Shown: positions 462 through 47,657 of the stretch, in pieces
Layout of the letters: every line of letters begins with the position of its first letter
Position numbering within the stretch: position 1 is the first letter of the stretch
NCBI GenBank assembly: GCA_950096895.1
Contig: CATNBF010000005.1
Span: 1-61,225, forward strand
Length of the DNA stretch: 61,225 nt
Source: an uncultured bacterium
GTDB lineage: Bacteria; Pseudomonadota; Alphaproteobacteria; Rs-D84
Direction: 5' to 3'
Translations under genes and position numbers: made by a program
Notes under the pieces: model-generated
Databases searched by the model: none
The model's input: only the letters and a program-made list of their open reading frames with translations
Told to the model about the DNA's origin: nothing

Positions 462-632
462 CGCAATGCTTTTGGAATATTGATGACCCTGGGGGCATTA
501 TAGCATAAGCAAAAGCTATGTGAACAGTTTTTTTTCATTTGTATCTGTGGGATAATTTATTCTTTACTTTTTTATTTTTTTATTCATAATAGATGCGGTC
601 AGTCCCACCAGGGATCCAACAGGGAATAAATT

Positions 633-662
633 ATGAATAACATGAAAAAATCGATTTTGTAA
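633..662 (+). CDS. putative leader peptide MNNMKKSIL (tandem Lys codons) of the lysS attenuator
   Basis: AGGGA RBS at 621-625; ATG AAT AAC ATG AAA AAA TCG ATT TTG TAA directly before the antiterminator/terminator. Confidence 0.5.
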   Translation: MNNMKKSIL

Positions 663-663
663 T

Positions 664-717
664 TGTGCGACCATCAAATTTAACGACGGGCGCACATTTT
701 TGCGTCCGTTTTTTTTT
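664..717 (+). promoter_or_regulatory. attenuator: intrinsic terminator with competing antiterminator upstream of lysS
   Basis: Stem ACGGGCGCA (686-694) / TGCGTCCGT (701-709) followed by a T run to 717; TGTGCG (664-669) can pair alternatively with CGCACA (691-696). Confidence 0.6.
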
Positions 718-742
718 AACCGTGTCGATCAAAGGGAAAAAG

Positions 743-2222: not shown

Positions 2223-3623
2223 ATGCCAAAAATGACATCCGAAGATTATGTCAGTATAATGACCGCCGATCTCGATCGGAAAAATTTGGATACGATCCGG
2301 CGGGCATGCGCCACGGGGCGTATTAATGACGCGGCGGCAACCTATTTAACCACACTGTATTCCGACAGTATGAAATGGGACCGCGAAATGTTTTATTTCT
2401 TGGGCAAGTGCTTTGGTGCGCCAAAGGCGGCTGTTATGCGTTATGATTACGCCACCGACAGTGCAATTGATGAACCCATAAAAATTTCGGATATAACGCC
2501 GTTGGTCCCTTATATTGTTCAGCATCGTCTGGACGCAGATCCCATGCGGAATCAGTTCTTTGACAGTCATGCCGGGCATCGAATTGACCTGGCGGTGTCA
2601 TCAATTGTGACGGTTATCGTCGGTGCCCAGAAAAGTGTAGAGCGCGCTTTGGATAAAATCACGGGCAAGTATTATAAAAAATATGTGACCGAGGTGACAG
2701 ATACCGTCTATCGCATTATTTCTGGGTATGAATCTGCGGCATTGGCCACAACAATTACCGATCAGGTACGGGAAAAATTATCAGAAAAATATAATTCTTC
2801 GGCGTCCGAATTGGTTTTGCAAATCATCGGTTCTGGGCATGAAAAGATTGCGGTTGAATTGGTGCGGGCGTTGGATCGGATCAAGCGGCCGCGTATGCGT
2901 CTGCAAGACGTCTGGCGGGCCAAGTGTTTGTTTGATTTGGTGCCCCAGGCACGAACTTTTATCGAACGGGTTCGGGATATGATGCCGGAACGTATTTTAT
3001 CAATACGTGACAGCTTTTATGACATTGATAACCCGCGTAATTATCGGGATGCCAAATTTATCATTAATATCGGCACAGATGGCGTGGTGGTGCCGATGGA
3101 AATTATATGCCAGGTTCGAACATTTTTTGATTTTGAACGGCGTACCCATGACACGTATGAAGTGGCCCGGCGTATCGATGACAAAGAAAATATCAATGTT
3201 GAACATGCCGTTGCATTAATGCACGAAGATGGGGTCAAAGAATACAACCTGTTGGTGGTGCGATGCCTTGAAGATTTGTTCGAACGCGTGGGATGGAATA
3301 TTTTATACAGTCATGGATTAAACACACCGTTATTCGATGGTTTTCCCAAAGATTGCACCATGCATTATCCACAAAAAATGGTTGATACCATCATGGATAA
3401 ATTAGACAACGCGACCGAGAACGAGGTCTTTCATGTCACATCTGCCCCGGCGAAATTGACCGTTGCCCAAGAAACAGAAATCTTTCGGTGGTTGGCGCGG
3501 TTTATTCTGGTGACGGCCATGCCGTATGCCGATAAAGACTGGTCGGTACCAACCGATACAATGGCGGGTAAACTATTTAACTTTGTTATGAAAGAAGTGC
3601 AACGTTATTACAACAAAGATTAA
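2223..3623 (+). CDS. RelA/SpoT synthetase-like nucleotidyltransferase domain protein
   Basis: Ordered motifs KSVERALDKI, LQDVWRAK, NYRDAK, MEIICQVRT, HDTYE match the RelA_SpoT SYNTH pattern; no hydrolase, TGS or ACT domains seen. Confidence 0.55.
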   Translation: MPKMTSEDYVSIMTADLDRKNLDTIRRACATGRINDAAATYLTTLYSDSMKWDREMFYFLGKCFGAPKAAVMRYDYATDSAIDEPIKISDITPLVPYIVQHRLDADPMRNQFFDSHAGHRIDLAVSSIVTVIVGAQKSVERALDKITGKYYKKYVTEVTDTVYRIISGYESAALATTITDQVREKLSEKYNSSASELVLQIIGSGHEKIAVELVRALDRIKRPRMRLQDVWRAKCLFDLVPQARTFIERVRDMMPERILSIRDSFYDIDNPRNYRDAKFIINIGTDGVVVPMEIICQVRTFFDFERRTHDTYEVARRIDDKENINVEHAVALMHEDGVKEYNLLVVRCLEDLFERVGWNILYSHGLNTPLFDGFPKDCTMHYPQKMVDTIMDKLDNATENEVFHVTSAPAKLTVAQETEIFRWLARFILVTAMPYADKDWSVPTDTMAGKLFNFVMKEVQRYYNKD

Positions 3624-47374: not shown

Positions 47375-47532
47375 GAATTAAATCATGGGTAAAAGTCGCA
47401 TAAATGTCAATAAAAAATAGAAATAAATCCCCAATCAATAATCCCAAGGAATACAAAAGAATAAAAGCCCAAAATCATGCTTGTAAAAAATTGATGAATA
47501 CTTTATAATCCGTGGTGTTGCGGGAAATTTAC

Positions 47533-47657
47533 CTATGCCTAATCCAAAGGGACGTTTTTCTGGCATAGTTTTTGAACATTAAAAATCCCGGATTTCTGCA
47601 CTTTTTTATCCCCCGTACTATGCCTAATCTAAACGTCGGTTTTTTATGCGCAATAAT
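47533..47657 (+). repeat. CTATGCC three-arm palindromic leader element, copy C
   Basis: Near-identical to the reverse complement of 11556-11678; follows TTGTAA-17-TATAAT (47481-47509); arm 3 contains the ATG at 47620. Confidence 0.9.

Follow-up and report, generated by a model that had tools for sequence, protein, structure and literature searches.

The DNA preceding lysS, the gene encoding lysine--tRNA ligase, in an uncultured alphaproteobacterium of the order Rs-D84 raises the question whether transcription of this gene is tuned to the supply of charged tRNA-Lys by a short leader peptide. The locus lies at one end of a window of 61,225 nucleotides (i.e. the whole stretch of DNA that was analysed, contig CATNBF010000005.1 of assembly GCA_950096895.1; all positions refer to it), which belongs to a genome of ~1.0 Mb in 41 contigs with an estimated completeness of 93%. 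The lysS product scored above the cut-off of two NCBIfam models, TIGR00499 (464 bits, cut-off 427.6) and NF001756 (521 bits, cut-off 468). As a class I LysRS found no above-cut-off match in the source genome (at the 93% completeness given above), lysS is the sole LysRS gene seen in it; the genes for tRNA-Lys carry the anticodons TTT and CTT. The gene on the 5' side of the leader is divergent, with its start at 461 on the minus strand. The genus Enterousia is placed in the order Rs-D84 in a 2025 paper (PMC12306168), which reports genomes of less than 1 Mb that miss amino-acid biosynthesis and suggests a dependent lifestyle. For such a cell, the adjustment of each synthetase to how far the cognate tRNA is charged would be among the few amino-acid responses that it could still regulate.

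We consider it probable, at roughly three chances in four, that the lysS leader acts as a ribosome-mediated (leader-peptide) transcription attenuator by which expression of lysS is adjusted to how much charged tRNA-Lys is available, an interpretation that appears well supported by the comparison with relatives. The features concerned are collected in Table 1.

Table 1. Features of the lysS locus and their positions in the window
Feature	Position	Strand	Basis and remarks
Promoter-like site TTTACT - 16 nt - CATAAT	563..590	+	consensus scan, 9/12 matches
Shine-Dalgarno-like AGGGA	621..625	+	sequence; 7 nt 5' of the leader ATG
Leader peptide frame MNNMKKSIL (ATG633 to stop TAA662)	633..662	+	sequence; equivalent frame in 100/102 leaders
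Candidate regulatory Lys codons AAA AAA	645..650	+	first codon is the conserved one, 20 nt 5' of G665
Antiterminator hairpin (predicted)	664..696	+	P1 665-669/691-695 (plus 664/696), P2 671-672/688-689, P3 674-675/685-686
Terminator stem-loop	685..710	+	stem 685-694/701-710, 10 pairs, 6 of them G-C; loop 695-700
Terminator T-run, 9 T	709..717	+	sequence
lysS Shine-Dalgarno AAGGGA	732..737	+	sequence
lysS, class II lysine--tRNA ligase, 488 aa	743..2209	+	NCBIfam matches; the proposed regulated gene

An earlier note, made from the letters of this stretch, had pointed to a ribosome binding site, the frame MNNMKKSIL with its two adjacent AAA codons, an intrinsic terminator and an alternative pairing of TGTGCG with CGCACA, and all of these elements were indeed present as described, TGTGCG (664-669) being the exact complement of CGCACA (691-696). 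Transcription probably starts upstream of the leader frame, as judged from the promoter-like site, and a layout CTTTACTTTT...TAnAAT was seen by eye to recur 5' of the leader in many relatives. The same note had named a promoter downstream of the terminator as an observation that would speak against attenuation; this objection did not hold, since the consensus scan found no promoter-like site between the terminator and lysS (700-742) and the gap between the T-run and the lysS ATG is only ~25 nt in the window (about 25-35 nt overall). Within the window alone, terminator-like sites were not above chance (3 found vs 2.8 expected in shuffles) and the fold of the whole leader was unremarkable (z = -1.14). 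By themselves, the features seen in the window would thus seem not to go beyond chance, and their reality rests on conservation.

We collected the lysS loci of relatives and took every leader that had the conserved boxes, which yielded 102 distinct sequences from Candidatus Enterousia and genera close to it. Of the 102, 100 had an ATG frame 8-11 codons in length (the two exceptions having an ATG further upstream and a GTG start, respectively), and in all 100 frames the stop codon (TAA 67, TGA 30, TAG 3) lay 2-7 nt and a Lys codon 17-22 nt 5' of an invariant GTGCG, which is the classical geometry that had been proposed and that the argument of a ribosome covering this segment needs. The short frame and its Lys codon thus withstood the comparison with relatives that had been put forward as a check, in spite of drift at most positions of the peptide (75 distinct versions among the 100 frames). 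The genes upstream vary by species (divergent genes, a tRNA-Gly gene and others), and because these neighbours differ the leader element must travel with lysS. The trivial explanation, an ordinary terminator of a neighbouring unit that happens to lie beside a meaningless short frame, draws on the unexceptional count of terminator-like sites in the window and on the tRNA gene found just upstream in some relatives, but it conflicts with the divergent orientation of the upstream gene in the window and with the retention of the frame, its Lys codon, the spacing and both hairpins in 100/102 leaders despite differing upstream neighbours; it is hardly credible any more, since conservation refutes it for practical purposes.

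A covariance model, R1, was built on the 102 leaders and run over 151 genomes of the order. It matched 105 of them, with a single match in each save for one genome that had two. The matches comprised 100 of the 107 genomes within the genus, plus the window's own genome, and one genome in each of four other genera of the family, and there were none in the 29 genomes of the five other families of the order. In the 16 cases that were cross-checked by eye against lysS loci, the match was located directly 5' of lysS on the same strand (16/16), and a pattern search recovered one copy of the leader in the window's own genome. These figures also bear on the idea that the terminated leader serves mainly as a small RNA, or that its peptide acts in trans, the cis control of lysS being a side effect. 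The peptides do resemble each other beyond the Lys (a hydrophobic residue, K, K or R, then F, L or S), and there is a precedent in another alphaproteobacterium, Sinorhizobium, for which the trp attenuator RNA rnTrpL and its peptide peTrpL are reported to act in trans (PMC10117765). The element is nevertheless attached to lysS, in one copy per genome (one genome with two), and its peptides, which have a length of just 8-11 residues, exist in 75 versions, which makes a function in trans very improbable.

Some relatives have no full device: one locus had no leader (L076), one had a degenerate leader (L099), and two (L091 and L123) kept the terminator alone, behind a tRNA gene. The device would therefore seem to be dispensable in some relatives. 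Inspection by eye of loci in other families (L024, L026-L030, L117-L123, L125, L127 and L128) gave no comparable lysS leader, L027 having a doubtful frame with one Lys. Conversely, two LysRS types of ~40% identity (L124 and L126) were preceded by the same leader sequence. In G029, a genome of another family of the order, lysS was found behind a leader of different sequence and the same design, with the peptide MSLKRKQLKKFFAA ending at a stop codon and holding 4 Lys in 14 codons; the stop adjoins a predicted antiterminator of -12.7 kcal/mol, which is followed by a terminator of -11.2 kcal/mol and a run of eight U. The family of G029 comprises 3 genomes, one of them with lysS, so this variant leader was sampled once.

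The predicted energies in the window are -11.6 kcal/mol for the antiterminator (664-696) and -16.0 kcal/mol for the terminator. The segment 685-694 is common to both hairpins, which makes the two predicted folds mutually exclusive: GTGCGACC (665-672) is predicted to pair with the 5' arm of the terminator, and the fold predicted for growing transcripts is the antiterminator when the 3' end lies at 696-705 and the terminator from 710 on. The six pairs between TGTGCG and CGCACA that had been noticed before are thus part of the structure, but the hairpin is longer and consists of P1 (GTGCG/CGCAC), P2 (CC/GG) and a variable, loop-proximal helix P3. P1 and P2 were paired in 100% of 100 aligned sequences, and P3 in 67%, in a model-fitted alignment that leans towards the structure of the model. 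The observed pairing and covariation of the antiterminator were reached by 0/500 shuffles, and slid partners paired in 20-47% of the cells. The covariation of stems that had been suggested as a check was found in P3, which has clade-specific sequences (TCA/TGA, CAG/CTG, GTA/TAC and others), and in the outer pair, with one G-C to A-U double change (next to four G-U), but not in the core, which hardly varies. Because the core pairs are invariant, the antiterminator gave no signal on a plain MAFFT alignment of 22 sequences (82.5% paired vs 82.4% in shuffles, with 266/500 shuffles as high), an alignment in which the loop-proximal helix is moreover misaligned, with two clades using different registers, something that the model-fitted alignment mends in part. 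Independent support for P3 is suggested by the folding energies of the antiterminator interiors, with a mean of -11.7 kcal/mol for the natural ones vs -9.2 kcal/mol for interior-only shuffles. The terminator was paired in 92.3% of the cells in 22 relatives and had a mean of -14.3 kcal/mol over the 102 leaders, of which 98 had six or more T among the 9 nt of the tail and 4 had a weak T-run. In the folds of the window's leader no prominent 1:2 anti-antiterminator or pause hairpin was found; a GGGTGCAC box near the Shine-Dalgarno sequence could pair with GTGCGACC, as seen by eye in one clade only.

The near-invariance of the shared segment is to be expected for a stretch with two alternative partners. 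It could also be read as the mark of a protein-operated switch, in which LysRS or another RNA-binding protein would recognize the near-invariant GTGCGACCA/CGGRCGCAC and the short frame would be secondary, as in E. coli, where ThrRS acts on the thrS operator. Both arms show an unusual degree of primary-sequence conservation across LysRS proteins that are only 74% identical, ACCA resembles a tRNA 3' end, and two LysRS types share one leader sequence. A segment that pairs with two partners should however stay invariant even if no protein binds it, the design is retained in G029 although the sequence differs, neither the T-box nor any other Rfam family was matched, and a protein would explain neither the Lys codon nor the conservation of the frame and its constant distance from GTGCG. 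We therefore regard a protein-operated switch as quite improbable, and return to the leader-peptide attenuator.

Its operation can be pictured as follows. Transcription would start ~35 nt 5' of the 9-codon leader frame. With plentiful Lys-tRNA(Lys), the ribosome would reach the stop codon (660-662) and cover or unwind GTGCGACC (665-672), a ribosome at a stop codon shielding about a dozen downstream bases; the segment 685-694 would then be freed to pair with 701-710, the terminator would form and most transcripts would stop at the T-run 5' of lysS. With scarce Lys-tRNA(Lys), the ribosome would wait with the conserved Lys codon (within 645-650) in its A site, and with the A site at 645 or 648 its front edge would extend only to ~657-661, short of 665. 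GTGCGACC would then be free to pair with GGGCGCAC as soon as the latter is transcribed, the 5' arm of the terminator would be locked in the antiterminator and RNA polymerase would enter lysS. The terminator is predicted to be more stable than the antiterminator, and read-through would rest on kinetics. Since no 1:2 hairpin was seen, an untranslated leader should default to read-through; the antiterminator should win in the absence of a ribosome as well, and the element would act as a brake that depends on translation and that a stalled ribosome releases. Such a default would secure a basal level of lysS, an essential gene, and could account for the modest Shine-Dalgarno sequence of the leader, which is poor or distant in many species: its duplex had a mean energy of -4.2 kcal/mol over 100 leaders, vs -3.06 kcal/mol in shuffles and -5.24 kcal/mol for the Shine-Dalgarno sequence of lysS itself, and reached -4 kcal/mol or lower in 56% of the leaders vs 27% of the shuffles (86% for lysS, in 22 relatives).

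The putative sensor needs a more precise description than the tandem Lys-Lys that had been proposed. One Lys codon is invariant (AAA in 97 frames, AAG in 3 and a non-Lys codon in none of the 100), but the tandem is not kept, the next residue being Arg (63 frames), Lys (31), Phe (5) or Ala (1). Codon 2 is Lys as well in most frames, and the number of Lys per frame is 1 in 8, 2 in 70, 3 in 18 and 4 in 4 of them. Lys thus takes up 218 of the 928 leader codons (23.5%) vs 5.1% of the residues in the genome's reading frames, an enrichment for which the nominal binomial value is not a true probability, the leader sequences being related. The conserved feature therefore appears to be one Lys codon plus a usually basic residue. 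Classical attenuator leaders usually have more regulatory codons. With so few of them the lysine response may be shallow, and its specificity for lysine modest.

This leads to the alternative of a translation-coupled attenuator that is not lysine-specific, in which the frame would report how closely the ribosome follows the polymerase (i.e. translation capacity or starvation of any kind) and the Lys codon would be kept for other reasons, for instance because AAA is an efficient codon or part of an A/U-rich RNA motif. The Lys codon is indeed single and mostly followed by Arg, the second residue past it is F, L, S or I in 98 of the 100 frames, so that U-rich codons follow and AAA..UUU could form a small hairpin, and a leader with three segments should allow read-through whenever the ribosome stalls at any codon or the frame is not translated. 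Yet the invariant residue is the one that is cognate to lysS, it is retained where AAG replaces AAA (3/100), the leader of unrelated sequence in G029 again has its 4 Lys in 14 codons, and before four other synthetase genes the codon runs are those for the cognate amino acid, with hardly any for another. We thus consider a response without specificity for lysine unlikely, and keep to an attenuator that senses Lys-tRNA(Lys).

The four other synthetase genes emerged from a whole-genome screen for terminators in 5' leaders, with the synthetase genes located by means of Pfam models. In the window's genome, ileS is preceded by a frame encoding MNQVTIIIR, after which comes a strong terminator, and metG by one encoding MELNKMMRMQN, again followed by a terminator; the frames before thrS (MKMFGFYFTTTTTTTPAGV, ending in TTTTTTTPAGV with seven T) and cysS (MHINVFNFYCCCR, ending in YCCCR) are associated with conserved hairpins, and no U-rich terminator was seen there. 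All four peptides end at a stop codon. A frame with matching codons was found within the genus in 18/18 cases for ileS, 16/16 for thrS, 14/16 for cysS and 7/17 for metG, and in other families of the order in 0/9, 5/11, 0/12 and 0/11 cases, respectively. When the codon runs were tabulated against the genes, K[KR] occurred 5' of lysS in 21/21 loci and the off-diagonal counts were 0-2. Each codon run being almost restricted to its own gene, it would be hard to argue that the Lys codon before lysS is accidental, and these leaders provide independent support for the interpretation given in the earlier note. They matched no leader family in Rfam (ileS, metG, thrS and cysS). No convincing matching-codon leader was found in the window's genome before pheS, trpS, tyrS, alaS, aspS, gltX and argS, nor before two PF00133 genes other than ileS or five PF00587 genes; the leaders of pheS and trpS have hairpins, and their frames are ambiguous. 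A relaxed genome-wide screen for a short frame plus hairpin was discarded, as its hits were largely noise and in the main came from the ends of genes lying upstream.

A basic residue adjoins the regulatory codons in four of the leaders (K-R/K, IIII-K/R, CC-R and M-R-M), and this recurrence hints at a nascent-chain or release-slowing trick that would let 1-3 regulatory codons suffice. Possibly, the lysS leader belongs to a system that extends across the lineage, in which at least five synthetase genes (lysS, ileS, thrS, cysS and metG) would be under the control of matching-codon leader peptides in a genome-reduced gut alphaproteobacterium that is unable to make amino acids; we put this forward tentatively, rating it a little below an even chance. 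More interesting than lysS alone is that the same principle apparently serves five synthetase genes in a genome this small. A bacterium that imports all its amino acids would gain a direct and protein-free means of fitting each synthetase to the charging state of the cognate tRNA. In practical terms, the covariance model together with the cross-gene pattern constitutes a ready marker for such regulation in uncultured gut Alphaproteobacteria, and an attenuator as small as this one (three RNA segments, 8-11 codons, often a single regulatory codon) could serve to test with how few elements the mechanism can work.

How does the lysS leader relate to known systems? Judged by sequence, it seems to have the features by which leader-peptide attenuators are defined, with the exception of the 1:2 hairpin. 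The best matches of the leader in Rfam had E-values of 0.29 or worse and scores far below the gathering scores. A T-box was rejected, the region 400-900 giving no match up to an E-value of 10, and so was a lysine (L-box) riboswitch, with no Rfam match and a stretch between stop codon and terminator that is also far too short, the aptamer of the lysine riboswitch measuring ~180 nt. No description of a lysS leader peptide was found in searches of the open-access literature. To our knowledge, pheST is the only synthetase locus for which leader-peptide attenuation is established, and for a few trpS and leuS genes it is predicted. Most likely, the lysS leader is a new case of classical leader-peptide attenuation, with lysine as the sensed amino acid.

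The closest parallel is E. coli pheST, where a leader peptide with cognate codons (pheM) and a terminator with an alternative antiterminator likewise precede the synthetase gene. The pheST leader has five Phe codons in 14 and is built of four segments; it thus differs from the lysS leader in the amino acid (Phe vs Lys), in the number of regulatory codons (five Phe vs one invariant Lys) and in the segments (four vs no 1:2 hairpin seen), and it belongs to the gamma-proteobacteria, whereas the lysS leader belongs to the alphaproteobacterial order Rs-D84. In the E. coli trpL leader, two regulatory codons lie near the end of the frame, ~20 nt 5' of the antiterminator arm, and the stop is a few nt before that arm; the spacing in the lysS leader resembles this geometry, and in both the antiterminator is weaker than the terminator, but trpL controls a biosynthetic operon, has a 1:2 pause hairpin and senses Trp. 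A comparative-genomic survey (Seliverstov et al. 2005, PMC1262725) gives pheST as the gamma-proteobacterial example of a synthetase-gene attenuator, lists candidate attenuators before trpS and leuS in Streptomyces and states that no RNA structure is conserved before lysine operons in Actinobacteria. The Streptomyces candidates are likewise predicted leader-peptide attenuators before synthetase genes outside the enterobacteria, for other amino acids and in another phylum. Tsubouchi et al. are said to have described, in J Biol Chem in 2005, leader-peptide attenuation of the lysine biosynthesis cluster of Thermus thermophilus, which likewise would use Lys codons in a leader peptide as sensor; it controls genes for lysine synthesis rather than lysS and belongs to an unrelated phylum. 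T-box and L-box elements are likewise terminator/antiterminator switches on lysine genes, as in the class I lysK of Bacillus cereus with its T-box leader, but there the RNA itself detects uncharged tRNA or free lysine, and no ribosome is involved. The five-gene system, if true, would be the ribosome-based counterpart of the T-box regulon of the Firmicutes.

The lysS leader of G029, a genome from another family of the order Rs-D84, has a sequence that is unlike that of the Enterousia type and follows the same design: its short frame, encoding MSLKRKQLKKFFAA, is followed by an antiterminator (-12.7 kcal/mol) that begins 2 nt past the stop codon, and further downstream by a terminator (-11.2 kcal/mol) with a run of eight U. 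The covariance model R1, built on 102 distinct Enterousia-type lysS leaders, gives no match to this leader. At two loci (L124 and L126) of genus g19, which belongs to the same family as the genome of the window, an Enterousia-type leader sequence stands in front of a G029-type LysRS; this enzyme shares about 53% identity with the LysRS of G029 and about 40% with that of the window. Either the two LysRS types diverged when the leader already existed, or the gene downstream of the leader was swapped. A partial form occurs at two further loci (L091 and L123), where a tRNA-Gly gene is followed by the terminator of the attenuator alone, about 25 nt 5' of lysS, and where the short frame and the antiterminator are both absent before lysS. 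Within the window, lysS is followed by a gene for a protein of 466 aa, which has zero NCBIfam matches and is probably located on the same attenuated transcript; at least one relative (L023) also has a similar frame 3' of lysS. The coordinates of these and the following features are collected in the table.

Location of the features (G000, the genome of the window; C numbers, its contigs; L numbers, individual extracted loci; every peptide is followed directly by a stop codon)
Feature	Location	Strand	Peptide or remark
lysS leader of G029	L025:1251-1368		MSLKRKQLKKFFAA
Gene for 466 aa	window 2223-3623	+	start 14 nt past lysS
ileS leader	L147:144-260 = G000:C2 about 61448-61564	+	MNQVTIIIR
metG leader	L148:152-260 = G000:C34	+	MELNKMMRMQN
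thrS leader	G000:C7 about 47499-47558, within L165/L170	minus	MKMFGFYFTTTTTTTPAGV
cysS leader	G000:C32 about 2122-2163, within L166/L259	+	MHINVFNFYCCCR
Repeated cassette, copies	G000:C1 about 21.07 kb, 34.52 kb; C4 about 50.12 kb; also C9, C14, C21, C22
Recurrent structured leader	G000:C2 before 47353; C12 before 7558; also C20, C11, C3, C8

Leaders with matching codons were also recovered before other synthetase genes of G000. The frame before ileS, with 3-5 Ile codons and a final K or R, is kept in all 18 same-genus loci, and 3' of it lie an alternative pairing (GTGCGC...GCGCA) and a terminator (GGGCGC-ATT-GCGCCC) with a T-run. Before metG the minimal conserved peptide is M-R-M-x-N/K, directly followed by the stop codon (7 of 17 same-genus loci); 3' of the frame lie an alternative pairing (ACGGG/CCCGT) and a terminator. 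The thrS frame contains seven Thr codons in a row and its end is overlapped by a CCCC..GGGG hairpin; no U-rich terminator was seen in this leader, and a conserved TATAAT lies between it and thrS. Thr runs before thrS are kept in 16/16 same-genus loci and in five of the 11 loci from other families. The cysS leader peptide is well conserved (MTIRFINFYCC, the next residue being C or R; 14 of 16 same-genus loci), and the hairpin 3' of its frame (GCAAAC..GTTTGC) has no T-run.

Two other repeated elements were found in G000. The first is a cassette present in at least seven copies, which combines a promoter-like box (CACTTG[CT]G[TA]AAAA..GCGCAA..TA[GT]AAT) in its 5' part with a hairpin (CTATGCCTAATC...) and T-run in its 3' part, ahead of small genes; two of the cassette loci (L161 and L162) show no match to any Rfam family. 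The second is a recurrent structured leader that combines TCGGGGGGC ... ACTCCCCGACC with a hairpin and a T-run and precedes unrelated genes, one of which encodes a DNA-methyltransferase-like protein. Its sole match in Rfam is sRNA-Xcc1, at a score below the threshold (43.6 bits vs 53).
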